64,000 bases of DNA from a virus (IMGVR_UViG_3300028886_000003:64001-128000); one strand, 5' to 3'; counted from the stretch's first letter, positions 564-18,781 are shown. Program-made: numbers and translations. Notes: a model not told the origin generated them from the letters alone.

Positions 564-616
564 TTTATCACTTTATTTTTTTTTACTTACTATTTATAGT
601 ATATTATCTATTATAT

Positions 617-1778: not shown

Positions 1779-1968
1779 CTAATAAAATAATATCATCTAT
1801 ACTATCTATACCTTTTTCTTCACTTATTACATCATCTTCTTTGCCATCGTGAATTTTTTGAACAGCTTCATCAAAATCATTAGCTGTAACCACTACTGTT
1901 TGTACTAATTCACAATTATATACTACATCACATACATATTCTTTCATTTTACTCACACTCTCTATCAT
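1756..1968 (-). CDS. Hypothetical acidic protein
   Basis: ORF coupled to its neighbours in the operon. Confidence 0.5.
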   Translation of the reverse strand: MIESVSKMKEYVCDVVYNCELVQTVVVTANDFDEAVQKIHDGKEDDVISEEKGIDSIDDIILLDEGDADD

Positions 1969-2491
1969 TTTTTACCATATCAAGTATCTCTCTTGCATGT
2001 ACTCGATAAGGATATTGTATTGTATTATCTAAATGTTCAAAATCTTTCCATTCTTTTTTCCACTTATCAATACAATTTTGAATATTTTTAATAATTTTTT
2101 GATCTTCTTTATCTACAAAAGCAGCACTTTTATTAATAATCTTCATTAATTGCAACATCATTTCCGCAGACTTACTACTATCTGCAACCCATTTTTTATG
2201 CTCAATTTCTGCTATATCATCAATCATATGGTTAAATGTATATTCTGATAAAATTTTACAAAGTTCAGAATATGATAATACTTCACCTTTTATTATAATA
2301 TCATCATATGAATTAAAAATATCTAAAAATTCATAATGAACAATATAATGACTGCCATAACGATGTTGAAATTTTTTTACATCTTTTTGCATTACTATGC
2401 CAATAGTTTCATTTGTTATATGATTATACAGTATAGAATAATTTTCAATTAAATCATGAACAGAAATACCCAGCAAATCTTGCTTAATCAT
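1949..2491 (-). CDS. Hypothetical protein (weak RyR-domain-like C-terminus)
   Basis: AEIEHKKW...WKDFEHL...YR pattern. Confidence 0.45.
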   Translation of the reverse strand: MIKQDLLGISVHDLIENYSILYNHITNETIGIVMQKDVKKFQHRYGSHYIVHYEFLDIFNSYDDIIIKGEVLSYSELCKILSEYTFNHMIDDIAEIEHKKWVADSSKSAEMMLQLMKIINKSAAFVDKEDQKIIKNIQNCIDKWKKEWKDFEHLDNTIQYPYRVHAREILDMVKNDRECE

Positions 2492-3155
2492 TTTCTTTTA
2501 CCTCAAATTCTGCTATTAACATAAAGTTTCTATATACAACAGTAGCAAATTTTATTGTTACTTTTTTTACAGCCATTAATTCAATTCTTTTTCGTGAATA
2601 AGATGGGTGTAATTGCTTGTAATCATAAAATTTTTGATGATAATATTTTTTATATTCATCATCTTGTCGCATCATTTTTCTTGCACATCTAGTTAGTGCT
2701 ATTTTTAAATTTTCACAGTAATCAATAGGATCTTGTTTTTTATTTGCTAATACTTTACCTTTGATTTTATTATCCATTTTACAAAATTGATTATTTGTTT
2801 TTACAACAGGAGCTAATCCTGCATATGAAAGAAAATGTTTTAAATTTTTAAAACGTAATATATTATCTATCTCAGTTATTAGCTCAGCTGCATCATAAAT
2901 ATTAATAGCTTCAATATTAGCTAAAAAATCCATATACTCTCTTGAAAATCGAAGCATATTATATATTTCATTACGTAACTCATCTAAAGCACTATCCATA
3001 CTTCTAATACTTATTTTTTCTAATCTATCAATACGATTGTCTTGTACTTCTTCATCCATACCATTGATACGATGCATATTACTTTTTTGAGCATCAAATA
3101 ATGTTTTATTTGTATTAGATAAAATTGATAATACTTTTCTTTCATCAGCATCCAT
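2484..3155 (-). CDS. IS110-family C-terminal (Tnp/Nop-like) domain protein lacking the RuvC DEDD domain
   Basis: AAELITEIDNILRFKNLKHFLSYAGLAP...LKIALTRCA...YY...AVKKV; only 223 aa; no catalytic SG after AGLAP. Confidence 0.75.
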   Translation of the reverse strand: MDADERKVLSILSNTNKTLFDAQKSNMHRINGMDEEVQDNRIDRLEKISIRSMDSALDELRNEIYNMLRFSREYMDFLANIEAINIYDAAELITEIDNILRFKNLKHFLSYAGLAPVVKTNNQFCKMDNKIKGKVLANKKQDPIDYCENLKIALTRCARKMMRQDDEYKKYYHQKFYDYKQLHPSYSRKRIELMAVKKVTIKFATVVYRNFMLIAEFEVKEND

Positions 3156-3156
3156 T

Positions 3157-3786
3157 TTATCTCATCCTTTGAATTATTTTAATTTGTTTTTTTGATATTC
3201 CTTTAATATTTTTTAGTTCATCATCTGTTGCATTGAAAACTCCACCAGGAGTACCAAAAATATCTAAAAGTTTTTCTGCTGTTACAACACCTATGTGTGG
3301 TAGATTAATTAAAACTGCAACCATATCATCTGTATGTTTTTTTACAACAATAGGCTTAGGTAAAGGATCAAATTCTTTTGATATATGTTTGATAATATCC
3401 ATAACACAGTAAACAAATTTAATTTCATTATCACAAAAAAAAACAGGTACATGCCATCTAAAGGCACACTCAGCCATTATATCATAATTACGTCCTGGTG
3501 TTGGTAACCTCGTATATCTTGTATTTAATTTATCATCATCATATACAATTATAGCCCTTAAAGGACAATCTTGCATTTGATATGCTTCTTTTCGTAATTG
3601 ATTGTTATTACAAGAGGCTATCCAATCTTGTAAAGTTTTAACTTCAATAGCAATCTTTTTATCTCCATCAATAGCAACAATATCTCCAATATCTAAATTT
3701 TTTACCTCCGCATCAGAAAAAAATGTATAACCTTTGAACATATTAATGCGTTCTTTATCTTCTCTTGAGTCAATATAAATCTTCAT
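3157..3786 (-). CDS. ERCC4/XPF (Hef-like) structure-specific nuclease with C-terminal HhH motifs
   Basis: IYIDSRE, LDIGDI, IEVKT..DW..S, LPHIGVVTAEKLL, IKGIS. Confidence 0.85.
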   Translation of the reverse strand: MKIYIDSREDKERINMFKGYTFFSDAEVKNLDIGDIVAIDGDKKIAIEVKTLQDWIASCNNNQLRKEAYQMQDCPLRAIIVYDDDKLNTRYTRLPTPGRNYDIMAECAFRWHVPVFFCDNEIKFVYCVMDIIKHISKEFDPLPKPIVVKKHTDDMVAVLINLPHIGVVTAEKLLDIFGTPGGVFNATDDELKNIKGISKKQIKIIQRMR

Positions 3787-3790
3787 AATA

Positions 3791-4789
3791 TCATATATCC
3801 CATTTATCTATTATATATTTTACTACTGTTGTAGTAACAGCATTACCTAAACATTTGTACCTTTGTGTATTACTGATCGGTTCATCATCTACACCATATT
3901 CAGTCCAATTGTCAGGAAAAGCCTGTAAACGCTCGCACTCCACTGGAGTTATAGCACGATAAGTATAATCTACATATATATGGCTTTGGAAATCATTAGC
4001 TTCTTTTATTCTAACTTTAGCAGGGTAATCATGTTGACAAGTAAGAGTAGGAGAAAGTCCTTCTTCATCATATACATTTCCACCTTGTCCTTTTCCACTA
4101 AGAGAGTGATTACCTATCTTTTTTATTTTTGCATCTTTAATAAAAGTACGCCCACCACTATTGCCTCCTGATGCAGCTAAGGTTTGATTAACACCATCTG
4201 ATTCTATTAATCTATATCCTTGAGGGCCATTTTTTATATAATTAACTTTGATATCTTTTCTTGTACCATCAGTTAAGCTAATATCATTAGGGTATGAATT
4301 TAATGAACCTCTTATATAAATTCTTTCACGATTTTGAGGAACACCAAAGTCTTTACTATTTAGTACATCCCAACGAATATTATATCCTAAATTTATTAAA
4401 AACTGAGCAATAATAGAGAATGTCCTACCTTGATCATGTGATAATAAATTTCTTACATTTTCTAAAAGAAAATATTTAGGTTTTTTTGCTTTTAATATTC
4501 TTGCTATTTCAAAAAATAATGTTCCTCTTGTATCATCAAATCCTTTTCCTAATCCTGCCACAGAAAAAGCCTGACAAGGAAATCCACCTACTAATAGATC
4601 AAAATCCGGTAAATCTGATGTATTAATTTTAGTAACATCTCCTAAATCATTATGGTCAAAATGTCTTTGATATATATTTCTAGCGTATTTATCAATTTCT
4701 GCATAACCTATACAATCAAAATCTTTTGAACTATTATTTAATCCAATTTCAAAGCCACCAATACCTGAAAACAAACTTAAATACTTCAT
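3791..4789 (-). CDS. DNA (cytosine-5) methyltransferase
   Basis: LFSGIGG, GFPCQAFS, ENV, QNRERIY, ECERLQAFP, GNAV. Confidence 0.95.
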   Translation of the reverse strand: MKYLSLFSGIGGFEIGLNNSSKDFDCIGYAEIDKYARNIYQRHFDHNDLGDVTKINTSDLPDFDLLVGGFPCQAFSVAGLGKGFDDTRGTLFFEIARILKAKKPKYFLLENVRNLLSHDQGRTFSIIAQFLINLGYNIRWDVLNSKDFGVPQNRERIYIRGSLNSYPNDISLTDGTRKDIKVNYIKNGPQGYRLIESDGVNQTLAASGGNSGGRTFIKDAKIKKIGNHSLSGKGQGGNVYDEEGLSPTLTCQHDYPAKVRIKEANDFQSHIYVDYTYRAITPVECERLQAFPDNWTEYGVDDEPISNTQRYKCLGNAVTTTVVKYIIDKWDI

Positions 4790-4989
4790 TCTATTGCCTC
4801 ATTATCTAAATTAATTTTTTTAATTAACAGAGAAGCCATTCTATTAAAAATTTCTTTAATTTCATATTCCTCTTCCATAGTCAATTTTTCTTTTTTCTGT
4901 AAATCAAAATAAACATCACATTTTCCAACATCTACAAATTCAAAACCAAGTCCAATAACTTCACAACAATCTTTACACATTATAATCAC
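4786..4989 (-). CDS. Hypothetical protein
   Basis: Short ORF coupled to its neighbours. Confidence 0.45.
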   Translation of the reverse strand: MIIMCKDCCEVIGLGFEFVDVGKCDVYFDLQKKEKLTMEEEYEIKEIFNRMASLLIKKINLDNEAIE

Positions 4990-5934
4990 CTAATAGTAAA
5001 TATTATGTCCATCACATTCTTCATCAACACACCATCCATCTTCGTATAATGTTTTACAGCTCGCAAACATTTGTGTTTCATCATCAACTAAATGTTCTAA
5101 AGCTTTCTCATCATCAACACAATGATAGAATTTTTCATCACTTAAAAAACCACATAATAATGTTAAAATTTCATCTTTAGTATATCCCAATTCTCTTAAG
5201 CAAACAATAACATAAAACCTTCCATTATATCCTAAAGTAGGATCTGTCATCATTTTTCTAACACAAGGTGGAATATCATGAGAAATTTTAACATCTCTAA
5301 CAACATCTACGTTTTTACGATGATCAAAAGTTATCTCTTTATCAAATTCAGAAATATCTAATAATTTTTCACCACTTATATAATTATAATTAACACCAGG
5401 ATGAATAGCCAACTCATATATATCTTCATATTCCATATCCATTAACATTTCATAAGTAATTGAAATACAGTATCTATTACTTTTTAAATTAATAGTATTA
5501 ACTATCCTTGCTACTCTACTTATATCTCCAACAACAGCACTATCTGAAGAAGTATTAGTAATTTCATGTAAATTTTTTACATATCGTTTAATACTACCTT
5601 TAGGATCTTTTAGCCAATCTTCAGCTAATAAAATAAAAATATGAAAGCCACGCCCACTAAATCTAATGTAAAATTTAATATTATTATCATGTAAATATTT
5701 GGCAACTGTTCTTGTATTTTCAAAAAAGCCTTCATCTTGTACATCAAAATCTAAGAAAATTTTATCAACATATACTGTATCACGATCTCTTCTATCTTCG
5801 TAAGAATAAACAGATTGGTATAATTGTTTTACACCATTAAATATATCGACATAATAGTCTATTTGCTCTTGATTGAGCATTTTTAATCTTCTTGGGGGAA
5901 CAAATATTTCATTAATAATCATTTTTTTCACCAA
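4990..5934 (-). CDS. Archaeo-eukaryotic primase (PriS-like catalytic domain fused to PriL-like Cys-rich C-terminus)
   Basis: FLDFD, FSGRGFH, GDISRVARI..TIN; C-terminal PPC...C...C...C. Confidence 0.85.
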   Translation of the reverse strand: MVKKMIINEIFVPPRRLKMLNQEQIDYYVDIFNGVKQLYQSVYSYEDRRDRDTVYVDKIFLDFDVQDEGFFENTRTVAKYLHDNNIKFYIRFSGRGFHIFILLAEDWLKDPKGSIKRYVKNLHEITNTSSDSAVVGDISRVARIVNTINLKSNRYCISITYEMLMDMEYEDIYELAIHPGVNYNYISGEKLLDISEFDKEITFDHRKNVDVVRDVKISHDIPPCVRKMMTDPTLGYNGRFYVIVCLRELGYTKDEILTLLCGFLSDEKFYHCVDDEKALEHLVDDETQMFASCKTLYEDGWCVDEECDGHNIYY

Positions 5935-6352
5935 ATAATAATTCTATGTTATGTTTCATTTCTTTTTCTAATTGCATTTCAGCCAATCTAATTGCAAATT
6001 TACAACCAGGGTCCATCATTAATCCTTCTTCACCATTAATTTCATAATATGGAAATTCAGCACATACATCAAATCGACTTTCATATTCATCACAAGTTTT
6101 GCCATTGAAATATCGACATGGTTGATCTCTTTGCTTGCAACATGATCCACATTGGTCACAAAACTCAGAATGATCTTGTACAAGATTATAATCGAAATAA
6201 CTATCAGGTACTTCAAATAATACAGTACCAATAATATCTGCAATTACATCAGATGGTAATTCAGGGTATTCTCTATGGAATTTATCAAGGAAGATTTTAG
6301 CAAATTTTAATGAATTAATTGGCACTATTATCTTCCTCCGTCTTTTAGACAT
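5912..6352 (-). CDS. YkgJ-like CxxCxxCC Fe-S/Zn-cluster protein
   Basis: CDQCGSCC...C...C..YESR..C..FP. Confidence 0.75.
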   Translation of the reverse strand: MSKRRRKIIVPINSLKFAKIFLDKFHREYPELPSDVIADIIGTVLFEVPDSYFDYNLVQDHSEFCDQCGSCCKQRDQPCRYFNGKTCDEYESRFDVCAEFPYYEINGEEGLMMDPGCKFAIRLAEMQLEKEMKHNIELLFGEKNDY

Positions 6353-7059
6353 TGGTCTTCAAAACTACAATATTTACAAGCAAAGAATGGATCAACTTTT
6401 GGCGGAAAATAATCTGTATCAATTTGGTGTCTTACATAATTAATAAGTTCAAAGACAGCATCATAATCTTCTTCAGTTACATAACTACCCTTTTTTTGTT
6501 TTTCTGCAAAATTAAAACCACGATATTGTTTATCTTTTGTAAAGTATATACAAGCTGATGATACCTTATAACTAGGATATTTATAGTTTACCAATCTTCT
6601 ATATATACATAACTCTATACGATAATTAGATATTGGTCTTGATTTACCTGTTTTATAATCAATAATAAATAATTCATTAGTTTTTTTATCTCTAAGAATT
6701 AAATCAATTATTCCACGCAAATTTAATTCATCATCTTTTATGTCGCCTTCAGCACTAAAAATTTCATAATCATTGTCAGCAATATTATAAAAAAATTCTA
6801 ATAATGCTTGTGCATGTTCATCAGAATCAAAATCCTGATCATCATAAGGATAAAGTTTTAACATTTCTTTATCAACAATATCATGTGTTATTCTATCGTA
6901 CCTCATTAATTCTTTTGCGACATGTTCAGCATACTCATGCACATCTAATCCAACTTGTGCAAAAGAACTTATATCTTCTTCCATATGGTCTATATATTTG
7001 TACTTAAATTTACGTGGACATAATAAATATAAATTAAGTTTTGATTTAGATATTCTCAT
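6328..7059 (-). CDS. PD-(D/E)XK Cas4/RecB-like exonuclease
   Basis: SKSKL..Y..CPRK, G..VH, GIIDL, IIDYKTG, CKYCSF..QC. Confidence 0.88.
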   Translation of the reverse strand: MRISKSKLNLYLLCPRKFKYKYIDHMEEDISSFAQVGLDVHEYAEHVAKELMRYDRITHDIVDKEMLKLYPYDDQDFDSDEHAQALLEFFYNIADNDYEIFSAEGDIKDDELNLRGIIDLILRDKKTNELFIIDYKTGKSRPISNYRIELCIYRRLVNYKYPSYKVSSACIYFTKDKQYRGFNFAEKQKKGSYVTEEDYDAVFELINYVRHQIDTDYFPPKVDPFFACKYCSFEDQCLKDGGR

Positions 7060-7802
7060 AAAGACACCACCTCTGTACTATTTATAAAAAAATCATGATT
7101 AGATTTATATTTGATAAAATCACCTGATCTAGGTATAATACCATTCAATGTATGATTTAAAAATGTTAACATACATCCAAAATCTTTAGATTCTCCATCT
7201 TGCATACATAATGTCCCTCTAATCATATCCTTTCCACTCTTAGTACGAATTTGTGTACATTCACGAATTAAAGCAAAATTATAACCCTCATCTTTCTTTG
7301 TAGGTTGATATTCTCTTAAAGTATCAATAGCAGACCCATCCATATATGCAATTTCATTACTAAAAACATCTGAGTTTAAATCATTTAAAGCAACTAACAT
7401 ACTCATAAAGAATTTTTTATTCCAAACTTTACATTTAATAATAACTGGTTCACCAACATTCAAAAAAGATTGATAATGATTAGCTAAGTCGATACTTATA
7501 TGTATACTAACATTGTGTTTTTTATTTTGCAAATGCATAATTGTCTTATATCTTTGTTTATCAACATCTGCAACAATTCCTTTAATATAACATTCATCTG
7601 TATCATTATAATCAAATGTAGATAAATCAATACACATATCATCAAAAGGAGATGTAACTGTATCTATATAATCTTCATGTGGTGAAAAAGATAATACAGC
7701 AAACTCTTTATATAATACATCTTGCTTACTATATGTTTTATCTTCATTAAAAAAGAAATTAATTAATTCAGTCCGTTTTTCAATTGTTTTCTCCATTGTC
7801 AT
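7056..7802 (-). CDS. Probable C-terminal (OB-fold) portion of the split DnaE polymerase
   Basis: VLYKEFAVLSFSPH recalls the DnaE 'E..LG....HP' motif, followed by OB-like IKGIVADV; later IRTKSGKDM. Confidence 0.55.
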   Translation of the reverse strand: MTMEKTIEKRTELINFFFNEDKTYSKQDVLYKEFAVLSFSPHEDYIDTVTSPFDDMCIDLSTFDYNDTDECYIKGIVADVDKQRYKTIMHLQNKKHNVSIHISIDLANHYQSFLNVGEPVIIKCKVWNKKFFMSMLVALNDLNSDVFSNEIAYMDGSAIDTLREYQPTKKDEGYNFALIRECTQIRTKSGKDMIRGTLCMQDGESKDFGCMLTFLNHTLNGIIPRSGDFIKYKSNHDFFINSTEVVSL

Positions 7803-9237
7803 TTAATGACACCTCCTTGTCATAAAAGCTATTTAAAATATATTTAATTACATTTACTGTAAAAGCATTTCCCATACATTTATATCTTTGTGCATCAGAT
7901 ATTTCTTTACCATCAGCACCTATTTTTGTCCAATCATCAGGAAAAGCTTGTAAACGTTCAACTTCTACTGGAATTAACCTTCTAACTTTGAAATTATCAT
8001 CTATAGTGCCCCAATTACCTGAACATGTTAAAGCACCGATGCCTTTTGATTGTGTCCTACCCCTACCTGTAGCAGAACCAGGATGATCTAAACGTACACC
8101 ATCACCAGGATAAACTTCATCATATCCTTTTTTAGTAGCAGTTGCAATTTTTAATGACTTAGGAACTTTATATAATCCAGTTTTTGCTCCCCATCCACCA
8201 CCAAGTGCTGATTGAGTACAACTTACACCATTAGGATCTAAAATTCTTGTACCCTGTGATGATTCAGTATTAACTTTGTGCATTTCTATTTCTTGTATAA
8301 GAATATCACCACTTGCTGTAATTGTTGGAGAAATTCCTGTATCTTTATATGCTCTTTTACTTTGATCAAATACTCCTTCACGAATTTCGAATTCAGTTAA
8401 TGATTTATCAAATTCAGTTGTGTGAATATCTAATAATTCTTTTAATTTGTACCAAATTTCAGGTGTTGGAATTGCAAAACTATTATCTCTTCTGAAATAA
8501 TGTGCAGCCTGTGTAGATGGAACACCTAATTTTTCTGCAATTTGTTCGATGGTATAAGGAGATGATCTTTTCTTTTCATATATCTCCTGTTGCAAACCTT
8601 TAATATCAACTTGATGAACCCTTGCTTTAATTTTACGATTAATAATTTCACGTTGCATACGCACATCATGATCAACATCAGTTCCCATTATCAAATCTGC
8701 TGATGTAAGAGAAATATCAGGTAATTCACCATATTCTTTCAATACCCCTCTAATATATATTCTCTCACGATTCTGAGGGACACCAAAATCCTTACTGTTT
8801 AAAACATCCCAACGAACTTGGTAACCTAATTCTAATAAATTATTAATAATAACTCTAAAAGTATTACCTTTGTCGTGTGATATAAGATTTTTAACATTTT
8901 CTAATAGAAAATATCTTGGCTTTTTTTCTTTTAATATTCTAGCAATATCAAAAAATATAGTACCCCTTGTGTCATTAAAACCTTTTTGTTTACCTGCTAA
9001 AGAAAAGGCTTGACAAGGGAATCCTGCAATTAACATATCAAAATCTTCTAATTCTTTTGCATTAATTTGAGTTAAATCACCTAAATTTTTATGATCAGGA
9101 AAATGTAACTGATAAATATTATCAGCATATTTATCAATTTCTGAATAACCTATTAATTCATAATTAAATTCAGAATAATCTAATGCTAATTCTGCTCCAC
9201 CAACACCACTACAAAGTGATAATACTTTAAGCACCAT
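7780..9237 (-). CDS. DNA (cytosine-5) methyltransferase with multi-TRD variable region and inserted HTH
   Basis: LCSGVGG, GFPCQAFS, ENV, QNRERIY, ERLQAFP, GNA; TIEQIAEKLGVPSTQAAHYF HTH; repeated G.S.T modules. Confidence 0.93.
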   Translation of the reverse strand: MVLKVLSLCSGVGGAELALDYSEFNYELIGYSEIDKYADNIYQLHFPDHKNLGDLTQINAKELEDFDMLIAGFPCQAFSLAGKQKGFNDTRGTIFFDIARILKEKKPRYFLLENVKNLISHDKGNTFRVIINNLLELGYQVRWDVLNSKDFGVPQNRERIYIRGVLKEYGELPDISLTSADLIMGTDVDHDVRMQREIINRKIKARVHQVDIKGLQQEIYEKKRSSPYTIEQIAEKLGVPSTQAAHYFRRDNSFAIPTPEIWYKLKELLDIHTTEFDKSLTEFEIREGVFDQSKRAYKDTGISPTITASGDILIQEIEMHKVNTESSQGTRILDPNGVSCTQSALGGGWGAKTGLYKVPKSLKIATATKKGYDEVYPGDGVRLDHPGSATGRGRTQSKGIGALTCSGNWGTIDDNFKVRRLIPVEVERLQAFPDDWTKIGADGKEISDAQRYKCMGNAFTVNVIKYILNSFYDKEVSLNDNGENN

Positions 9238-9511
9238 TTTTATGCCTCATTAATTTTTCCACTTGTTCATCTGTTAAATAATATTTATCATCTACATCAT
9301 CTTCCATAATATCAGCAAGAATTGACACAGAATTAGATATTTTATTTTTCTTTCTTACAATAAAATAACCTTCTTTTGTACTATATCCTCTGACTGGACT
9401 AAAACCTAATGTTTTACGATTAACATATTCAATAGAAGTACATAAAAATTCATCTTCACAAACATATACTCCATCTTTTTTCTTTTTCCATTCTTTACCA
9501 TTATATTCCAT
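9227..9511 (-). CDS. Small protein ending in a motif normally internal to phage C5 methyltransferases
   Basis: LADIMEDDVDDKYYLTDEQVEKL. Confidence 0.55.
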   Translation of the reverse strand: MEYNGKEWKKKKDGVYVCEDEFLCTSIEYVNRKTLGFSPVRGYSTKEGYFIVRKKNKISNSVSILADIMEDDVDDKYYLTDEQVEKLMRHKNGA

Positions 9512-9519
9512 TTGACCAC

Positions 9520-11262
9520 CTATTCTTCATCTGTAACTGGTATATCATCGAATGCCCCAGCCCAAACTAAATTTTCTTTAATTCTTTTATTACATTTTCT
9601 TGGAGGAACTCTCGCACAAAAATCATCAAAACTAGTGAAATCACCATTAGCAGTTCTTTCTTCAATTATAGCTTCAGAAGATTTAACTGACATACTATCA
9701 ACCAAATCAAAACCCATATAAATATTATTATCATCTATATATGTATGTAATCTTGATTTATTAACGTTAGGATTACATAATTGTGCTTCAGAATCTTTAA
9801 TCATTTGTAATATTTCAACACGTTTTTCACTTTCATCTACATGTATTAACATTGCAACTGCAAATTCTAAAGGATAATATGTTTTCAACCAAGCTGATTG
9901 ATACCCCAAAGCTGCATATCCAACTGCGTGAGATCTGTTAAATGAATAATCTGATGATTTTTCCATGTTACTCCATAGTTCATTTGCTACTTTTTCATCA
10001 ACATTATTTTTCTTACAACCACTAAGAAAATCTTTTTTTGATTTGTCAAATTCTTGTTTTTTCTTCTTAGAAATTGCTCTACGCAAATGATCTGTTTCTA
10101 AATCAGACATCCCTGCTAATTCTCTTGCAACAGCCATAATATCTTCTTGAAAAATCATTAATCCTTGTGTTTTACCCAATATTGTTTTTAATCTTTCATC
10201 AAGGTAGACTGGTTTTTTTCTACCAAATTTATAATCAGCATATTGCTGGTCCATTCCATTGTTTCTAGCACCTGGTCTAATTAATGATATTGTTGCAACC
10301 ATTTCATTAAAATTAGATGGTTGAATTAAACTAACAGCTTGACGTCCAGCACCTTTTTCTAATTGAAATATTCCTAATGGATCTTTACAAATAGTTTCAA
10401 AAACTTTTGGATCATCAAAATCATATGGTAGTTTAACATTTGGATCATCAATAATTTTTAAGCAATCTCTTTGTATATCTAATACTTTAACTGATAATGT
10501 ATCATTTTTAAGAAAACCTTGGCTCTCACACTCAACACCTGTGTTTGCAATAATTGTATTGCCTTTTAATTTAATTACAGATGTATAATTCCATAATGGT
10601 TTATCGAATATAATAACAGCACCAGGATGTTTTCCATATGCTTTTAATAATCCAATCATATCTTCAAGATTATCTCTAACAAATGGATTTCTTTGCAAAA
10701 ATGCTTGAACAGCTTCATTATCTTTATAATCTTCATCATCCGCAAGTTGTAGTGTAATTTTATTAATTTCATCAAAATTACCACCACTCATTCTTGTAAG
10801 TGCTTTTAGTGCCATTTTAGGTGAATATGGTATACGTGTAGATACTTGTGCACAATATTCTTGCCCAAATTCATCAATAATAAGAGATATTACTTCATCT
10901 CTCATATCAGAACTTACATCTGTATCTATATCAGGTAATGATGTCATGGCTCTTGTTTCGTTTAAAAATCTAGCAAAAGATAAATCATGTTCTTTTGGTG
11001 GAATTTTTGTGATATTTAAACCATAACAAATTACAGAAGCTAAACATGATCCTCTTGCTGGACCTCTAAATATTCCTGCGTCATCTATAAGAGCACAAAT
11101 ATATGCTGTTTGCAAGAAGAAATCTTCTAATTTAGTTTTTTCAATAACTTTTAATTCTTCTTCTAATTGATTCTGATACCATTCATCATCATAAACACCT
11201 TTATGCTGCAAACCTTGTATTGCTAAATCTTTCATAAAAGCAAAATTATCTTGAACATTCAT
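9520..11262 (-). CDS. dnaE: Family C DNA polymerase (DnaE) catalytic core: palm, thumb, fingers, HhH
   Basis: GPARGS, SLPDIDTD, KHPGAVII, FLKND, GIFQLE, IFQED, YSFNRSHAVGY, WLKTYYPLEF, LVWAGAFD. Confidence 0.93.
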   Translation of the reverse strand: MNVQDNFAFMKDLAIQGLQHKGVYDDEWYQNQLEEELKVIEKTKLEDFFLQTAYICALIDDAGIFRGPARGSCLASVICYGLNITKIPPKEHDLSFARFLNETRAMTSLPDIDTDVSSDMRDEVISLIIDEFGQEYCAQVSTRIPYSPKMALKALTRMSGGNFDEINKITLQLADDEDYKDNEAVQAFLQRNPFVRDNLEDMIGLLKAYGKHPGAVIIFDKPLWNYTSVIKLKGNTIIANTGVECESQGFLKNDTLSVKVLDIQRDCLKIIDDPNVKLPYDFDDPKVFETICKDPLGIFQLEKGAGRQAVSLIQPSNFNEMVATISLIRPGARNNGMDQQYADYKFGRKKPVYLDERLKTILGKTQGLMIFQEDIMAVARELAGMSDLETDHLRRAISKKKKQEFDKSKKDFLSGCKKNNVDEKVANELWSNMEKSSDYSFNRSHAVGYAALGYQSAWLKTYYPLEFAVAMLIHVDESEKRVEILQMIKDSEAQLCNPNVNKSRLHTYIDDNNIYMGFDLVDSMSVKSSEAIIEERTANGDFTSFDDFCARVPPRKCNKRIKENLVWAGAFDDIPVTDEE

Positions 11263-11263
11263 A

Positions 11264-12214
11264 TTACCTTCTCCTTGGTTCTTTTAAGAATATTTTTTTC
11301 AATTGCTGATGTTTTGTAAAAGTTGGTAATACTCTTTTTTTACCTATATTATTGATTGATGTAACATTACATTTGTCTGCAATTATTGATGTATTTTTAA
11401 TCATTGTATCAACCAATGGTAAATCTTCAAAACCTGATTGTTCAGCAAATTGTTTAACTAATTTAGATGTACCTAAGCAATTACTTGGTAAACTTGGTGT
11501 TACATCATTTTTTTGCTTATGAAACATATCTGCTTGTAAATGACGTCTAGTATTCCTATCACTAATAAAATGTGCATCTGTAGTGGCAACACAATATTTC
11601 ATATCAATATCAGAATATAAATCTAATAGTTTACTATTAATTGTTTTTTGTGGAGGATATGCTGGGTGGAATTGAAATTCTGCCGCAACATTTTCTTTTC
11701 CAAAAACATCTAAAAGTTTATTTAAGAATGGTTCAGCTTCATGAGGAAAATGATTTTTATTGTCTGGATTAAAACATTGACCTATTGTACCTAATGAACA
11801 AGCTGTAGATATAAATAAACCTTCAGGATTATCAAATAATATTGGATATGGTAATAATGGCCTACGATAAAAATATTTTGCAGTTGATAAATATTCTAAC
11901 TTGGATAAATTTTTAGCTCCTTCATCATCCTTTGCTAAAACAACAAGATGGTATCTATTGTTATCTTGTGGTTTATCGGTTGATGGTGTGCAATAAAATT
12001 CGCATCCAAAAATTGGCTTAACATTAGTGTCCTGCCCTAATAAAAAAAACTGACTCCAACCTACTATATTACCATGATCTGTAATTGCTACCGCTTTTTG
12101 ATTATTTTTTTGAACTTCATAAAATAATTCAGGGATTTTTATTGTTGCATCTCCTTGGCTATAATCCGTATGAAGATGCAAATTAACAAAATTATCTTTT
12201 TCCATATTAATCAC
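11264..12214 (-). CDS. Stand-alone PHP domain of DnaE (putative proofreading exonuclease)
   Basis: HLHTDYS..D, AITDHG, GCEFY, HLVVLAK, TACSLG, TTDAHF. Confidence 0.9.
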   Translation of the reverse strand: MINMEKDNFVNLHLHTDYSQGDATIKIPELFYEVQKNNQKAVAITDHGNIVGWSQFFLLGQDTNVKPIFGCEFYCTPSTDKPQDNNRYHLVVLAKDDEGAKNLSKLEYLSTAKYFYRRPLLPYPILFDNPEGLFISTACSLGTIGQCFNPDNKNHFPHEAEPFLNKLLDVFGKENVAAEFQFHPAYPPQKTINSKLLDLYSDIDMKYCVATTDAHFISDRNTRRHLQADMFHKQKNDVTPSLPSNCLGTSKLVKQFAEQSGFEDLPLVDTMIKNTSIIADKCNVTSINNIGKKRVLPTFTKHQQLKKIFLKEPRRR

Positions 12215-12468
12215 TTTAAATCATATTGTGAAAAACCAATAAGAAAATTAGGTGGAATTGATAATATTCTTGAAGCCTCAGGGATCTCTATCATACATGG
12301 GGCTTCAGTAATATCGGTTTTATATAAAATACCATATCTACCTTCTTTTTCGTATTGGCAATTACGAGCTTGTACTTTACGAAGAATTAAAGTATCAGTG
12401 TTTTCTTCGTATGTAAGCATAATATTAGCTAGTCTATTTATCACCTTTCTCTTCCTCTTTTTTATCAT
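12211..12468 (-). CDS. DUF2283-like small protein
   Basis: YEENTDTL.L...IEIPEASR pattern. Confidence 0.45.
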   Translation of the reverse strand: MIKKRKRKVINRLANIMLTYEENTDTLILRKVQARNCQYEKEGRYGILYKTDITEAPCMIEIPEASRILSIPPNFLIGFSQYDLK

Positions 12469-13327
12469 TAGGGAATAATATTTGACTTAATTCAGATGGT
12501 GTAGATACTATATCTTGTGTTTTTAAATTTCTAGTTAAAAACACAAAACTCTTGCCTTCTGTTGTTAAATCAGATCTATTTTTCACAATTGTTGCAGTAT
12601 AATCATCAATATTATCTTTTTCAATTTTATCTAAAAGTATCCTTACTGAACACTCATCAATAAATCTTTGTTTAACATTTGCAAAATTATCAGGATCTTC
12701 ACATATTTCAGGAATAAAATCTTCATGAGATACAAAAATTACTGGAACTGGTAACAACATAAAAGGTGAAGAGGAATCTCTAAATGCTTTATTTCTAATT
12801 TTCCATAAATTAAAGCTTACACCATCTGCTACTCCAATATTTTCTTCTAATCTCATAAAAGCCTCACAGTATTCAAGTATGAAGCTAATACCATCAACAA
12901 TGACGCCTTTAATTTTCCTACCAGCATCTAATTCGTCTTGAATCACACTTGCAATAGTACCGATCATATAAATAGTTTCTTCTTCATCTCTAACTGTTGC
13001 ACTATCTTTTTCTCTTTCACGTGTAGGATTAGGGCTATATACAAAAATTTGATCACTATATTCACTAAAAATATCTGTTACAATTTCTAATCCTGAATGA
13101 TCAACATCAATATAGACAATTGATTCATCTTTTTTAAGATTTTCAGTTAATAATGCTAAAGATAATGAAGATTTTGCTGTATCATTTTTTCCTGAAATCA
13201 AAATTTTTTTATTAACTTTATCTTTCTCAATATTAAAAATCTCTTTTTTAATTTGATCTTTTAATGATGTTTTTGATTGCCTTGTTTTGCCTCCAGCATT
13301 TCCTTTAGGTTGGTTAAAACCTACCAT
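12434..13327 (-). CDS. P-loop ATPase (AAA_24/Sak4-like recombination protein)
   Basis: Variant Walker A GKNDTAKS, YIDVD, Walker B VIVDGIS, VIFVSH. Confidence 0.65.
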   Translation of the reverse strand: MVGFNQPKGNAGGKTRQSKTSLKDQIKKEIFNIEKDKVNKKILISGKNDTAKSSLSLALLTENLKKDESIVYIDVDHSGLEIVTDIFSEYSDQIFVYSPNPTREREKDSATVRDEEETIYMIGTIASVIQDELDAGRKIKGVIVDGISFILEYCEAFMRLEENIGVADGVSFNLWKIRNKAFRDSSSPFMLLPVPVIFVSHEDFIPEICEDPDNFANVKQRFIDECSVRILLDKIEKDNIDDYTATIVKNRSDLTTEGKSFVFLTRNLKTQDIVSTPSELSQILFPNDKKEEEKGDK

Positions 13328-13429
13328 GTTTTTGCCTCCAATTGTTTTATAAAAAGTAATAAATTAACTCTACATCTACTATCTTGAATTTTATCTAAAT
13401 CAAGATATAATTGATCTATTAAACTCATT

Positions 13430-13654
13430 TTAGTTTTGCTCTCCTTCTGAGCTGTTTCCTTGTAAAACAAATGTTCTTTCGACAAGATCGTCCACCACTT
13501 TTTCCATCTCTTCCTCAATAATTGCTTTTGACACAAAATGGTCAACACGTTTATAATCAGCCTCTAATTTCATAATCCGAAGCTTTATATCTTCTGTTCT
13601 TTGTGAAAAAAGAGAAAAAGGATTATTAAGTAAATCCTTTTTATACTTCTTCAT
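13430..13654 (-). CDS. Hypothetical protein
   Basis: ORF coupled to 13641..14750. Confidence 0.45.
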   Translation of the reverse strand: MKKYKKDLLNNPFSLFSQRTEDIKLRIMKLEADYKRVDHFVSKAIIEEEMEKVVDDLVERTFVLQGNSSEGEQN

Positions 13655-14750
13655 TATTATTATCTCCGAAAAATGCAGAAAGATCTACATCATCTTGGAC
13701 TTGTAAAAATCCACCTAAATGCCATCCAATCTTTTCTTCACCAGTAGTTTTGTCTTTATATTTATAAGATTGTAAACAAGCTATTCCAGTTGCACCTACA
13801 GAAATCGCAAGCCCTTTAATATGTGATGGGTGAAGATATGATGTAATAGTACTAACTTCATTTGTAGTATGATCAGTAAATTCAATTACCACACCAACGT
13901 TCTCATATATTGTTTTTGGTGTAGTTATATCTGATATTACACAAGGAATACAGCAGAAATCATATTGGTAATCTTTTGGATTTTTTATTGAAGAATGCTC
14001 AAAAGCAAAATCATATAAATCCATTTCTGTAGCTACTTGCTCTATTAATATTTTACCATTTTTATCAGTAAATGCTTTATTCCAATCATCTAAAATAATT
14101 GCTATTTCCTCTTCGGAATATGGTGCTTTATGAACTTCATCTATTGCACCGGCATTATACCACATCATTTTGTCCTTAGAATATTTGAAATTTTTTCTAG
14201 GACTTTTTCCAACCCTTGCAGATATTGCTCCATATTGGCAAACAGGAATAGTATCTTCAACTCTATCCTCACTAATAGCAAAATATTTTACTTTGATGGT
14301 TTCTTCACCATCTTTATTTTTTTCATAAAGATATCCTACTGCACCACCATTTGCTTTAGGGTCGAGGATTCTTTGACCTGTTTTAGCACCATAACGATAA
14401 ACTGGATTTCCTTCCTTGTCGACAAATTTCTTTTTATATGCTTCTTCTTGTCCAACTTTTGATAATTGATTCATTGAAGCATTGTATTGATCTCTGTCAA
14501 ATGCGAAATCACGAAAACGGAAAACTAACATACCATTTTCTGCATTTAACATATTTCTAGCTAACATTCTCATTGAACCACGAGCTCTTCTCAATGATCT
14601 TATGCGACGTGCATCATCGCTTTCAAAATCATCAGGATTAAGTTCTTGGTATATTTCTTCGGCTTTACGTTCTAACATTTCTGCTGAAAGATTATGATCT
14701 TCAGCAAATTTTTTATTTATCTCTATCTCATTATCAATTATAGAATTCAT
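13641..14750 (-). CDS. Hypothetical replication protein, possibly ssDNA-binding (OB-like, acidic tail)
   Basis: First gene of the replication operon, near the Sak4-like ATPase; beta-rich C-terminus; acidic tail DDVDLSAFF. Confidence 0.4.
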   Translation of the reverse strand: MNSIIDNEIEINKKFAEDHNLSAEMLERKAEEIYQELNPDDFESDDARRIRSLRRARGSMRMLARNMLNAENGMLVFRFRDFAFDRDQYNASMNQLSKVGQEEAYKKKFVDKEGNPVYRYGAKTGQRILDPKANGGAVGYLYEKNKDGEETIKVKYFAISEDRVEDTIPVCQYGAISARVGKSPRKNFKYSKDKMMWYNAGAIDEVHKAPYSEEEIAIILDDWNKAFTDKNGKILIEQVATEMDLYDFAFEHSSIKNPKDYQYDFCCIPCVISDITTPKTIYENVGVVIEFTDHTTNEVSTITSYLHPSHIKGLAISVGATGIACLQSYKYKDKTTGEEKIGWHLGGFLQVQDDVDLSAFFGDNNNEEV

Positions 14751-14792
14751 AAATATCTTCTCCTATAGTTTGTAATAATATATCTAATCAAT

Positions 14793-14810
14793 CTACTATA
14801 TAAATGTTAC
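14793..14810 (-). promoter_or_regulatory. Archaeal TATA promoter of the replication operon
   Basis: minus strand AACATTTATATAGTAG upstream of an AGGAG RBS and ATG 14750. Confidence 0.65.
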
Positions 14811-14842
14811 TATATATAGATTAGAAAAATAAAAAAATACAT

Positions 14843-15421
14843 ATGAACAGAAGAGAAAAAGATTTTGTTCAAAATTATCCTATTTTTGGATCAGGTACTG
14901 CAAAAAGATACAGATACACAAGAAAACAAAGAAAAGAATTAAAAGAGAAATATAAAAAAGAAGGAGTGTATTTATTGCCAAATAAAAAAATTGCTGAAAC
15001 AAGTATGCCTGCTAAAACAAGAAATAATGCAGATAGTTTTAGTGCATTACAATTCAGTATCGCATCTTTAGATCCATCTGACCAAGAACACATTCTTGAA
15101 ATGGTTAAACAAATGCCTGATGCTAATTTTTTACAAAATTATATTATAGCTGTGCAATGTAATAGATTAAATCTTGCACTAAAAAATGAAGATGATTTAG
15201 GTAAAATATTAGACTCAACAGAGGGTGTTATTGCAAACTTACAAGGTATGATTACAGCAAAACACACAATGGAAGAAGGGCAAGACCTTAATGTTAATAT
15301 TAATAATAGTATTACTGATTTAATGAAGGATGTGCAAAATAAAGAAAATAATGATAATGAAATTATTATTGATGTTGATAATGAAAAAAGCGTAAGTGAT
15401 TACTTACCAACTAAAAAATGA
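14843..15421 (+). CDS. Hypothetical protein (possible terminase small subunit-like)
   Basis: 192 aa; basic N-terminus, helical core, EEGQDLNVNIN. Confidence 0.4.
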   Translation: MNRREKDFVQNYPIFGSGTAKRYRYTRKQRKELKEKYKKEGVYLLPNKKIAETSMPAKTRNNADSFSALQFSIASLDPSDQEHILEMVKQMPDANFLQNYIIAVQCNRLNLALKNEDDLGKILDSTEGVIANLQGMITAKHTMEEGQDLNVNINNSITDLMKDVQNKENNDNEIIIDVDNEKSVSDYLPTKK

Positions 15422-15680
15422 GGCTTTTAAAATGAGTGAAAAATTAACTGAAGAAGAAGTAATGGAACAAATAGAAAATTTAAATGCAGAATATGAACGT
15501 TTTTCTGAAACAACTGCAAAAGATATTCTTGATTTAATTATCAAAGAAGAATATCCCATATCAGTTGCATTAGGTGGACTATGTGCAACAATAGATAGTA
15601 TTATACAAGTTTATGATATGGAAGAGTTCAGAGAAAAATGTATAGATCTTATTGCACAAGATTTTCAAGAAGTAGAATAG
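15396..15680 (+). CDS. Hypothetical acidic protein (probable start at MSEKL)
   Basis: ORF preceded by GAGG RBS. Confidence 0.55.
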   Translation: MITYQLKNEAFKMSEKLTEEEVMEQIENLNAEYERFSETTAKDILDLIIKEEYPISVALGGLCATIDSIIQVYDMEEFREKCIDLIAQDFQEVE

Positions 15681-15772
15681 AAAAGTATATATAATATAAA
15701 AACATATATAATTATTGTACCATTAGTGCTATCTCATAGAATTCTCTTTTGGTGCACAAATCACCTTCTTGT

Positions 15773-15800
15773 AATTAAAGGGGTAACTCCCCTTTTAATT
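15773..15800. terminator. Hairpin between convergent genes
   Basis: AATTAAAGGGG-TAACT-CCCCTTTTAATT. Confidence 0.55.
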
Positions 15801-16004
15801 AACTATTTTTAATACCTGTTGTATTGTTTTTACAGATGATTCAGATACTTGATAGTTATTAAAAATCTTTTTTTTTCGTACAAAATAAGTATTATCAGTT
15901 TTAACAATAACAAAAGCAATATTATCATTTTTAAAATAAATAATTTGCTCATCAAAATCAATAAAATCTTCTTTTTTCATTTCACGCTTATATATAATTC
16001 TCAT
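15795..16004 (-). CDS. Hypothetical protein
   Basis: 69-aa ORF. Confidence 0.5.
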   Translation of the reverse strand: MRIIYKREMKKEDFIDFDEQIIYFKNDNIAFVIVKTDNTYFVRKKKIFNNYQVSESSVKTIQQVLKIVN

Positions 16005-16164
16005 AATAATCAGTATAAAAAATAAGCCCCGAATTGAATCCCCAGAAAAAATTACACCAACACATTATTATTGCTTTACCGCAAACGAGGCTTATTATAG
16101 TGTAATCTTGAAGTTAATAAGACTATATGTCTTTGCGGTTGCAAAGGAAGAATATATCTTCCAA

Positions 16165-16236
16165 TCCCAATTCTAGGAATCGAACCTAGCTATAATCGGT
16201 CTACAGCCGACCGCGTAACCACTACGCTAAATTGGG
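16165..16236 (-). tRNA. tRNA-Tyr(GTA), archaeal type
   Basis: CCCAATT/AATTGGG acceptor (C1-G72, A73), loop CT-GTA-GA, short variable loop, GGTTCGATTCC. Confidence 0.93.
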
Positions 16237-16498
16237 AGTAAAACGGGCCGTGTTTTTTAAAAGCTTTGAGTCGGCCAGCGCTTTAATTATTTTATCATAT
16301 GAAGGGGTGCATGAATTAATTGCAACCCTATGAAACAATTGGTATAATAATATCACAATCGTCATTTCCTCTTGCTTGACATTGGTATTTTTTACAATAT
16401 CCAAAATTACTATCGTGCCTAATATAGTAAGGACATTTGTAGCATTTCATTTTTTTACCTTGATCAATCATAACAATCTCTCTTTTATTTATATATAA

Positions 16499-16570
16499 TA
16501 GCTCTGACAGGAGTCGAACCTGTGTCGGCGGGACCAAAACCCACTATGATTGCCACTACACCACAGAGCT
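16499..16570 (-). tRNA. tRNA-Gln(TTG)
   Basis: AGCTCTG/CAGAGCT acceptor, loop TT-TTG-GT, GGTTCGACTCC. Confidence 0.93.
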
Positions 16571-16572
16571 TA

Positions 16573-18102
16573 CTATAATTTAATACATGAATATCTTTCA
16601 TTATTAAGTGTTTCAATTAATACATCGTATGGATTATAATTATTACTCATAACCATTTTTAAAACATTTTGACTAAATCCTGACAATAATGTTACACCTA
16701 ATTCATTTTCAGTTAATGGAATTGTTTTTGTTCTTGATGCAACATTCCAAAATATAAGTTTAGGTAATTGATACAGTGCGTCTTCATATTTTGCTTGAAT
16801 TTCCTTAAATAATGGTTTTGATAATTTTTTTGTTTCATCTTTCCTAAAGAACGAATGACAACTTTGTGCTGAATCAAATTCCATATCAGAAATAATAAGC
16901 ACTTGTTTTACCATATCCTTTCGTTGGACATTATTTTTAATTGCCACACCTAATATCAAATCAAATACTGCTTCAATATTAGTATTAGCCACTTCATCAT
17001 GTTCTAATGCTGTGTTAATTTTCTCTCTTAAAGTTTTTGAGTTACTTAAATCAACAAATTGTGGTTCATTAGAAAATGTAATATATTGATCTTTATATAC
17101 TCCTTCATTATGTTCTGATGTATATATTGCTAAACTGTTAGCAACATCAAGAGCGGTAATATTTCCACTAACTGGTGTAGTCATACTACAAGATCCATCA
17201 GCAACTACTAAGGTATTAGATATATTAATATCTGATAAATTAGACCAAGCTACTTCTAATGTTTCATCATAGTTTTCCTCAGGTATAGAATAGAAACGAT
17301 TAGATGTATAACGTGATACAACATCAGCAGGTGTTGCAACTTTCATATTTATTTTAGCATTACCTTGCTGAACAGCATCTAAATACCTACCTCTTCTTAA
17401 AGGATCATGTGCCATAAAAGCATTCCTATACCTTAAATTAGCTAAAGATGGCACTTTATTATAATCAATACTTTCCCACTCGTTATTACACATTTTTACT
17501 TCAACTACATTTAAATATGCACGAAGTTCTGATAATAATAAACGATATTGGCGCGGAGACATGCCTAATGACTTAATAATATATTTAGCCATCATTTTAG
17601 TTTTTTTGCTACTTGCATTCTCACTTGGTAACCATTTCGCAAGTAATGAAATAGGTTTGTTATTCTTCATTAATTCTTTATCCATTTTTAATCTTCTATC
17701 GATCATATGGATAATTAAATTATCATGTTCCAAATCATAGCCTAAAAGTGATATTAAATCATCCCATCGACCATATTCAGGAATAAGATGTAAGAATTTA
17801 ACGAAATAGTTTGGATCAATTTGAGCAAGCCTTCTGTAGCATACTCTAAATAATCTTCTTTCACCAAGTCCCCCACGAACATCTCTAGCAAAAAATAACC
17901 ATTTTAATGCATATTCCTTATTTTCTAAAAAGGCTTCGTCAAATAAAGTTCTAATTAATTCATCATCTGCTTGACGTAAACTACTAACTTGATAATTTAA
18001 ATCAAGTAATGCTGAGCCTGTGCTTTTATATCCAATAGCACCATTTTCTGTTATTGAATGATTTTTAATTTCTCTTAACTCATTTCTAATTAAATTAAAC
18101 AT
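16573..18102 (-). CDS. DUF2828 / TROVE(Ro60)-like protein with C-terminal vWA domain
   Basis: TENGA, RDVRGGLGER, YGRWDD, AKWLPSE, W..IDY..VPS.A, VADGSCSM (MIDAS), ISDMEFD, FWNV, LSGFS. Confidence 0.9.
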   Translation of the reverse strand: MFNLIRNELREIKNHSITENGAIGYKSTGSALLDLNYQVSSLRQADDELIRTLFDEAFLENKEYALKWLFFARDVRGGLGERRLFRVCYRRLAQIDPNYFVKFLHLIPEYGRWDDLISLLGYDLEHDNLIIHMIDRRLKMDKELMKNNKPISLLAKWLPSENASSKKTKMMAKYIIKSLGMSPRQYRLLLSELRAYLNVVEVKMCNNEWESIDYNKVPSLANLRYRNAFMAHDPLRRGRYLDAVQQGNAKINMKVATPADVVSRYTSNRFYSIPEENYDETLEVAWSNLSDINISNTLVVADGSCSMTTPVSGNITALDVANSLAIYTSEHNEGVYKDQYITFSNEPQFVDLSNSKTLREKINTALEHDEVANTNIEAVFDLILGVAIKNNVQRKDMVKQVLIISDMEFDSAQSCHSFFRKDETKKLSKPLFKEIQAKYEDALYQLPKLIFWNVASRTKTIPLTENELGVTLLSGFSQNVLKMVMSNNYNPYDVLIETLNNERYSCIKL

Positions 18103-18133
18103 TATTTAACACCACCTAATATTATATTTATAC

Positions 18134-18334
18134 AAAGTACTTTATATGAGTTTTCAGTTCACATATTATATTGCTGTTAGTACTTTTTATTTTTGCAAGA
18201 TGCACATATACCAAGTCAAATCCAGGTCTTTATATTTTGCTGTATGCATCTTCTTTGAATTCATATAACCAAGATACTTTTTATGTAAAAACTCGCTGTG
18301 TTTTAACTTCTTAATTTTTTGCTGTAAGTATCTT
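18134..18334 (-). repeat. Three tandem hairpin units (8-bp stem + WACAGCAA + variable loop) in the leader of the DUF2828 gene
   Basis: AAGATACT-TACAGCAA..AGTATCTT; AAGATGCA-TACAGCAA..TGCATCTT; AAAGTACT-AACAGCAA..AGTACTTT. Confidence 0.85.
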
Positions 18335-18356
18335 TAATATATTATTTATATAATCA

Positions 18357-18373
18357 TAGTATATAAAGGTTTT
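18357..18373 (-). promoter_or_regulatory. TATA promoter driving the hairpin array and DUF2828 gene
   Basis: minus AAAACCTTTATATACTA about 25 nt upstream of the first hairpin. Confidence 0.65.
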
Positions 18374-18383
18374 GTATACAAAG

Positions 18384-18776: not shown

Positions 18777-18781
18777 ATTGA

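Follow-up and report, generated by a model that had tools for sequence, protein, structure and literature searches.

Known family C polymerases and the locus examined

Published surveys describe family C DNA polymerases among viruses as exclusive to bacteriophages (PMC4889955) and archaeal viruses as encoding polymerases of family B (PMC11348598). Here, we describe a bacterial-type family C polymerase, DnaE, which is encoded by three separate genes in the virus record IMGVR_UViG_3300028886_000003 (145,330 bp, 28% GC, direct terminal repeats, rated complete). The stretch analyzed, referred to below as the window, comprises bases 64001–128000 of this record (64,000 nucleotides), and coordinates are those of the window unless stated otherwise. 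The record represents a tailed virus of about 145 kb that infects gut methanogens, and the three-gene DnaE is its only recognizable DNA polymerase. We consider it probable that three separately translated polypeptides, assembled without covalent joining, constitute the polymerase that replicates the virus genome. A literature search, which did not include the main compendium of methanogen viruses, found no paper on a DnaE in an archaeal virus.

The closest described system belongs to the Methanobacterium virus PhiF1 (MK994522.1), cultured on Methanothermobacter thermautotrophicus. Its record annotates ORF58 and ORF57 as DnaE-superfamily proteins; as in the window, the polymerase is of family C and the PHP gene is separate from that of the core. 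Downstream, both genomes have the same order of genes for a PD-(D/E)XK nuclease, an ERCC4 nuclease, a transposase_20-like protein, and NrdD. Unlike in the window, the PHP domain of PhiF1 is fused to a uracil-DNA glycosylase (UDG), and the core and C-terminal parts form one 1176-amino-acid open reading frame (ORF) with a large palm insert, so that neither a third gene nor a methylase cassette is present; the PhiF1 genome is 74 kb, compared with 145 kb for the virus studied here. Thus, the occurrence of DnaE in an archaeal virus and the split between PHP and core are already precedented by PhiF1, and the novelty implied by the initial annotation of the window was overrated. What appears to be new is that the C-terminal part forms a subunit of its own, that a cassette sits between the subunits, and that the clade is so large.

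Bacterial DnaE1 enzymes of known structure with an active PHP proofreader (Thermus aquaticus, 2hpi; Mycobacterium tuberculosis, 7pu7) have the same order of domains (PHP, palm/thumb/fingers, HhH, OB) and, like the window protein, a complete set of nine PHP metal ligands. Comparison with 2hpi and 7pu7 gave E 2.3e-76 and 7.8e-75 for the core and E 3e-21 and 1.1e-15 for PHP; the identity to the window core is only about 30%. In contrast to the window proteins, these enzymes are single chains of about 1200 amino acids, have a beta-clamp motif as well as a tau-binding end, and function within a bacterial replisome. The DnaE-like proteins of Streptomyces, Mycobacterium, Pseudomonas, Moorella, and Clostridium phages are the nearest neighbors on the phylogenetic tree (25–33% core identity), but their hosts are bacteria, and in the seven with annotation examined the protein is encoded by a single ORF of 965–1162 amino acids. 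In cyanobacteria, DnaE is likewise divided between genes, and DnaE-n and DnaE-c are joined by a split intein through protein trans-splicing. The window locus differs from that system in having no intein halves, in its breaks at domain borders, and in its three pieces.

The polymerase genes and the genes between them are the following:

11264–12214, minus strand: PHP subunit, candidate 3'-5' proofreading exonuclease (Pfam PHP, E 1.7e-31)
9520–11262, minus strand: polymerase core subunit, 580 amino acids, with palm, thumb, fingers, and HhH (Pfam)
9227–9511, minus strand: 94-amino-acid ORF, first cassette gene, no Pfam match
7780–9237, minus strand: C5 cytosine DNA methyltransferase, 485 amino acids, second cassette gene (Pfam DNA_methylase, E 2.8e-80)
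7056–7802, minus strand: DnaE C-terminal subunit (CTD), 248 amino acids, identified by profile matches to fused DnaE C-termini

They belong to a long minus-strand gene string that also includes nuclease genes. The core and CTD genes are 1.7 kb apart, with the 94-amino-acid ORF and the methylase between them, two genes to which the initial annotation had not referred.

Domain content of the three subunits

All DnaE domains (PHP, palm, fingers/HhH, and OB) were found at the locus, yet they lie on three ORFs with their own starts. In comparisons with solved structures, residues 5–285 of the PHP protein aligned with residues 2–270 of the E. coli alpha subunit. Its translation probably starts at the ATG at 12205 (313 amino acids) rather than at the GTG at 12214 (316 amino acids). 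The nine metal ligands (H13, H15, D22, H47, E72, H89, C139, D213, and H215) are all conserved, and they are invariant in 24 stand-alone PHP relatives, PhiF1 ORF58 included. PHP precedes the palm in the DnaE order, without an exonuclease insert as in PolC, and has a gene of its own. The protein is a candidate for the subunit that would supply metal-dependent 3'-5' proofreading.

The core matched DNA_pol3_alpha (E 1.6e-46), DNA_pol3_finger (E 3.8e-40), and HHH_6 (E 2.6e-21) in Pfam, and its translation contains the motifs PDIDTD and FNRSHA. Residues D111, D113, D115, and D254 do not vary among 16 relatives; the catalytic aspartates are D111, D113, and D254. Core residues 29–574 aligned with residues 321–891 of E. 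coli alpha; taken together with the PHP alignment, this places the first break at the border of PHP and palm. The core stops 8 residues past the GAFD motif, just after the HhH domain; in the E. coli enzyme, the OB domain, the clamp-binding motif, and the end that binds tau all lie beyond this point. The junction between the PHP and core genes reads ...AAGGAGAAGG TAA T ATG. The initial annotation had described a stand-alone PHP gene with metal-ligand motifs, coupled through TAA-T-ATG and its own ribosome-binding site to a core with PDIDTD, FN.SHA, and HhH that ends before the OB domain, and each of these features was recovered.

The protein encoded at 7056–7802, which had been proposed as a probable C-terminal piece, had no match in Pfam or PHROG. 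A profile was built from the 248-amino-acid protein and twelve relatives and searched against 1.8 billion representative proteins. It matched stand-alone proteins of about 240 amino acids; in longer proteins, the match covered the last ~230 residues (E 1e-18 to 7e-8). In the longer proteins, which included core-plus-C-terminus DnaEs of about 800 amino acids, a 1271-amino-acid UDG-PHP-core-C-terminus chain, and a 1200-amino-acid intein form, the matched region lay directly after HHH_6 (Pfam). BLASTP aligned residues 586–797 of the fused protein P0150 with residues 24–239 of the window CTD (E 2e-14). Comparison of the CTD profile with single sequences by hhalign gave weak matches in the right region (Moorella phage, E 0.16; PhiF1, E 0.23). 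In the alignment with the fused forms, the break lay after the GAFD motif at the end of HhH and ahead of the next element, the conserved R..L helix.

The AlphaFold (AF2) model of the CTD (pLDDT 84.6) consists of N-terminal helices followed by two OB-like beta-barrels. Fold searches with this model returned tandem OB proteins; the match to residues 988–1099 of M. tuberculosis DnaE1 (Z 10.6, root-mean-square deviation 2.6, 98 residues) was tied with other OB folds. Since the profile, fold, and alignment evidence agree with the fused forms, 7056–7802 is assigned by homology as the DnaE C-terminal OB module, in line with the earlier proposal. Thus, PHP and DNA_pol3_alpha were identified by Pfam, as anticipated, and the OB piece by the family profile, not by Pfam.

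Proposed assembly of the subunits

The predicted complex of the core and the CTD scored 0.71, whereas none of the three controls scored above 0.00. The runs shared at least 86% of contacts, and the pLDDT of the partner was at least 83. When the score was calibrated, 58 of 80 solved complexes attained this mark, compared with 2 of 110 mismatched pairs. The modeled interface joins core residues 478–577, the HhH domain, to CTD residues 1–42, and the family-invariant CTD residues K9, R10, L13, F16, and F17 and the VLSFSP segment (36–41) are those that contact the core HhH in the model. The modeling thus supports binding between the core and the CTD. The contact between PHP and the core is inferred from the one-chain enzymes. 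Of the heterotrimer put forward in the initial annotation, the core–CTD contact has therefore gained a controlled model, and the PHP–core contact stays at inference; the multimer modeling suggested there has covered the core–CTD pair, which docks in the model.

The similarity of the CTD folds to tandem OB proteins of the SSB (single-strand-binding protein) and RPA type, which equals their similarity to the DnaE OB domain, would also fit an independent SSB that descended from a DnaE C-terminus and lost its binding to the polymerase, which would leave a heterodimeric enzyme. The physical distance between the CTD and core genes in the window is in keeping with such a protein. However, the invariant residues of the CTD family are located at the predicted contact with HhH, a separate multi-OB candidate SSB is encoded at 13641–14750, and in the relatives L128 and L130 the CTD gene starts at the stop codon of the core. 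We therefore regard an independent SSB as unlikely.

A split that is only apparent, in which programmed recoding (a frameshift or stop read-through) or splicing at the protein or RNA level joins the three ORFs, was also considered. It might be suggested by the stop and start of PHP and core, which touch or overlap, and by the inteins present in the core of some relatives (P0055 and P0160). The geometry of the PHP/core junction, however, varies among relatives, with a gap of 1 nucleotide or an overlap of 1, 4, or 26 nucleotides, and such different frame offsets speak against a conserved frameshift or recoding site. In addition, every downstream gene is provided with an ATG and a Shine-Dalgarno sequence of its own, and the core and the CTD are separated by 1.7 kb with two genes between. 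A Pfam search of the three ORFs gave no match to an intein family. The residues flanking each break sum to about the linker length of one-chain homologs, so that nothing is missing and no room is left for intein halves. The absence of intein signatures at the breaks, which had been noted at the outset, was thus borne out; as far as sequence can show, there is no splicing, and joining by any of these routes is highly improbable. The layout of the junctions fits ordinary coupled translation.

On the reading that we prefer, PHP, core, and CTD are translated separately and would assemble non-covalently into a family C polymerase that replicates the 145-kb genome. The core would contribute the three catalytic aspartates, the fingers, and the duplex-binding HhH domain. 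The N-terminal helices of the CTD would plug into the HhH domain and restore the fold that is continuous in one-chain DnaE, and the CTD would add an OB module to handle the single-stranded template. Because the genes lie on the same strand, with stops and starts that overlap or almost meet, and have their own Shine-Dalgarno sequences, a single transcript and coupled translation are the probable source of all the pieces.

Conservation, relatives, and origin of the split

The best 120 clusters related to the core have 63–82% identity to it; about 118 of them are core-only proteins of 580–607 amino acids, many on contigs of 140–158 kb. Stand-alone PHP proteins with at least 36% identity to the window PHP form 73 clusters. 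The three-part split and the placement of its pieces in the initial annotation were upheld, and the arrangement is conserved across relatives. The complete genome contains one DnaE locus and no match to PolA or PolB. These results bear on the view that the split gene is a decaying pseudogene and that the virus uses the host PolB/PolD or an unrecognised polymerase. In its favor, the window core lacks a tail of about 18 residues that most relatives have, and a foreign cassette lies within the locus. Against it, none of the three ORFs is disrupted and all are conserved in more than 100 clusters, the columns of the catalytic aspartates and PHP ligands are invariant, and no other polymerase family was matched in the genome. 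Decay of the gene is accordingly very unlikely.

The relatives include a series of intermediate forms. In P0159, DnaE is one chain of 1271 amino acids. The two-gene form, found in PhiF1, L010, and L012, consists of PHP (with or without UDG) and a core-CTD gene. L127, which belongs to the clade of the window virus itself and has a core 69% identical, encodes the core and CTD as a fusion of 841 amino acids. L128 and L130 have three contiguous genes. In L129, L001, and the window, an ORF of 93–95 amino acids and a C5 methylase are located between core and CTD. The small ORF is absent from L128, L130, and L127. The cassette was rejected as the cause of the split between core and CTD, since the genes of L128 and L130 are split with nothing between them; thus, the split preceded the cassette. 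The C5 methylase has 68–71% nucleotide identity to genes of Methanobacteriaceae genomes. In PHROG, the 94-amino-acid ORF weakly matched the C-terminal part of a methyltransferase family (E 4.8e-4), but it was not accepted as a methylase fragment, since it has no significant similarity to either methylase of the window.

Inteins with a LAGLIDADG domain occur in the core of P0055 (1000 amino acids) and P0160 (1200 amino acids), and PhiF1 ORF57 (L126:6289-9819) has an insert of about 360 amino acids within the polymerase core. This part of the enzyme is thus repeatedly targeted by mobile elements; the window copy has no such insert.

A phylogenetic tree was obtained by a quick LG+G4 search on 44 hand-picked rows; it is unrooted, and a midpoint root was used for drawing only. 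The three-part clade formed one branch (SH-aLRT 100) nested among the two-part forms. The whole group of archaeal viruses fell into a clade with a support of 98 whose other members are phage DnaEs only, and the chromosomal bacterial DnaEs were placed elsewhere. This topology fits a phage origin of the gene. The earlier proposal of acquisition from a bacteriophage and the phylogeny suggested for it were thus partly sustained: the clade groups with phage DnaEs, whereas a tree so thinly sampled and unrooted gives no direction of transfer. A phage-type DnaE would have entered the lineage of Methanobacteriales viruses, with PHP already a separate gene in the lineage shared with PhiF1. A stop/start pair would later have parted the core from the CTD, and in one subclade, which includes the window virus, the 94-amino-acid ORF and the C5 methylase would then have landed in the gap.

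Host

The following features of the genome bear on the host (genome coordinates are those of the whole record):

16165–16236, minus strand: tRNA-Tyr, 72 nucleotides, with a short variable arm, C1:G72, and A73
19007–19117, minus strand: tRNA with a 38-nucleotide insert in the anticodon loop (Rfam match, not found by ARAGORN)
L006:6630-6830, genome 57629–57829, minus strand: archaeal-type histone, 66 amino acids (Pfam CBFD_NFYB_HMF, E 2.2e-14)
L005:2076-3044, genome 35075–36043, plus strand: pseudomurein-binding repeat (PMBR) protein, 322 amino acids (36.7 bits, cut-off 24.9)

Archaeal and eukaryotic tRNA-Tyr has a short variable arm and C1:G72, whereas bacterial tRNA-Tyr has a long arm and G1:C72; under the known identity rules, a bacterial TyrRS would not charge a short-arm tRNA-Tyr with C1:G72. 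In the second tRNA, the predicted fold pairs the anticodon region with the insert, which is probably an intron of the archaeal type. A length of 38 nucleotides is far below that of the group I introns in bacterial tRNAs, and a short tRNA intron requires the archaeal splicing endonuclease. The PMBR protein adjoins the tail-fiber genes; no match to Peptidase_C71, the pseudomurein endoisopeptidase, was found in the genome. A histone-fold gene is also present on the contig of a sister virus (G002:C2).

The order of the replication genes in the window (PHP, DnaE, PD-(D/E)XK, ERCC4 nuclease, transposase_20-like, and NrdD) matches that of PhiF1 (ORF58–ORF51), and the same module order is present in L010 and L130. 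A contig of a Methanobrevibacter metagenome-assembled genome (MAG) carries a sister DnaE with 40% identity, and related DnaEs of 801–819 amino acids occur in 3 of 314 Methanobacteriaceae assemblies. Some genes have 67–80% nucleotide identity to Methanobacteriaceae genomes. A DUF2828/DUF7788 gene at 16591–18103 has 67% nucleotide identity over 1.5 kb to G156:C1:1254784-1256275, which suggests gene exchange with the host lineage.

Five kinds of evidence across the genome, namely the tRNA-Tyr, the tRNA intron, the histone, the PMBR protein, and the PhiF1 gene order, thus support an archaeal host with a pseudomurein wall, as the assignment to a methanogen in the initial annotation had it. If the host were instead a low-GC bacterium, for example of the Bacilli, the DnaE would be unremarkable, and the archaeal-looking genes would have come by transfer. 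Related proteins labelled “MAG: Bacilli bacterium” at NCBI, together with the low GC content and the Shine-Dalgarno sites on the genes, are compatible with this. A host of that kind is nevertheless most improbable in view of the tRNA-Tyr class, an intron that needs the archaeal endonuclease, the PMBR protein and histone, the module shared with a virus cultured on Methanothermobacter, and the related DnaEs in Methanobacteriaceae assemblies.

Observations that weigh against the proposed replicase

Several observations count against a three-subunit DnaE at work in a methanogen. The pass of the core–CTD complex model may reflect likeness to solved one-chain DnaE structures. The tree is small and quick, with hand-picked rows and no real root. 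The contig of one relative bears the Bacilli label at NCBI, which is a binning label. Spacer matches, suggested earlier as a means of assigning the host, gave no support: positions 1–20000 of the window had no match in a CRISPR array among 201 Methanobacteriaceae genomes, and the short high-identity matches of this region in Methanobacteriaceae genomes were rejected as spacers, since they lie outside repeat arrays. Finally, profiles for sliding clamps (DNA_pol3_beta_3 and PCNA_N) had no match in the genome, and the core ends at the equivalent of about residue 897 of alpha, before the clamp-binding motif of the E. coli enzyme at 920–924. Both points bear on how a bacterial-type polymerase would be processive in an archaeal cell.

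Clamp-binding candidates and single-strand binding

In about 99 of 110 related cores (P0002–P0120), a charged linker is followed by a short terminal QxxL tail, such as KQTTLGFFK, QTTLDEVL, or QSRLI. This tail resembles a PCNA-interacting protein (PIP) box or clamp-binding peptide; the window core, which ends in TDEE, is without it. The codons of the tail double as the Shine-Dalgarno sequence of the next gene (at the junctions of L128, L129, L130, and L001). A role of the tail as a clamp motif is inseparable from the embedded Shine-Dalgarno constraint, and the window virus does not have the tail. A PIP box on the tail of PHP was not found in the 73 relatives; the conserved sequence P.F.KH..FKKIFLK at this position looks like the native PHP-palm linker. 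The KRxxLxxFF sequence at the N-terminus of the CTD was considered as a possible PIP box, but this reading was not favored: its R and L correspond to those of the R..L helix found after GAFD in all DnaEs, and its residues touch the core in the complex model.

Of the genes upstream of the polymerase, one bears on single-strand binding:

13641–14750, minus strand: 369-amino-acid multi-OB protein, candidate RPA/SSB-like protein, upstream in the gene string (AF2 and Foldseek)

This protein had no Pfam match and is conserved upstream of the polymerase genes. Its AF2 model (pLDDT 83.8) contains several OB domains, and the best Foldseek matches were Teb1, Pyrococcus abyssi RPA, and Thermus SSB (E 2e-4 to 1e-3). 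It was therefore dismissed as a divergent sliding clamp, and the model suggests that it is likely a viral single-strand-binding protein. The Pfam family tRNA_anti-codon had no match in the genome.

As a tentative and rather doubtful extension, the three-subunit replicase of this large and widespread clade of ~145-kb Methanobrevibacter viruses may have been rewired to work without a beta clamp, either by recruiting the host PCNA through a new tail or helix or by a processivity of its own provided by the free OB subunit. If true, this would be a replicase that crossed the divide between bacterial and archaeal replication and adapted to the machinery of the other side.

Other genes of the replication module

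The remaining genes of interest in the gene string are as follows:

12434–13327, minus strand: RecA-fold ATPase (Sak4/AAA_24/KaiC-like), upstream neighbor of PHP (PHROG Sak4-like, E 2.5e-7)
6328–7059, minus strand: PD-(D/E)XK (Cas4-like) nuclease, directly downstream of DnaE (Pfam PDDEXK_1, E 2.2e-24)
4990–5934, minus strand: 314-amino-acid protein, weakly matched to “primase” in PHROG (E 2.3e-7)
3157–3786, minus strand: short XPF-type nuclease with ERCC4 and HhH domains (Pfam ERCC4, E 5e-9; HHH_5, E 5.7e-8)
2484–3155, minus strand: 223-amino-acid protein in which only a Transposase_20 (IS110 C-terminal) domain was matched

The ATPase matched a KaiC-like Pfam family below the curated cut-off (E 8.9e-4), and its position is kept in relatives. 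The PD-(D/E)XK gene occupies the same position in L010, L127–L130, and PhiF1 (ORF56); in L128, a GIY-YIG endonuclease gene (L128:7061-7531) is inserted between it and the CTD gene. The XPF-type nuclease belongs to the replication module common to PhiF1, where ORF54 is annotated as an ERCC4-type nuclease. The Transposase_20 gene is found at the same place in PhiF1 (ORF53), L010, and L130, and this conservation marks it as a fixed part of the module rather than an insertion sequence. Counterparts of the 314-amino-acid protein in L129 and L130 have a weak precomputed match to the large subunit of the archaeo-eukaryotic primase (PF04104). If the primase match holds, part of an archaeal-type primase would stand beside a bacterial-type polymerase.

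Implications

Viruses of this clade are numerous in metagenomes, and their replication module also occurs in a cultured methanogen virus; the bacterial-type replicase thus emerges as the usual polymerase of an entire group of archaeal viruses. The relatives record the stepwise splitting of a gene, followed by the settling of a methylase cassette in the gap. The three-gene DnaE amounts to a natural dissection of the enzyme at its domain borders, which offers separate PHP, core, and OB subunits for testing the contribution of each, and it allows one to ask how such an enzyme would work in a cell with PCNA and not a beta clamp.

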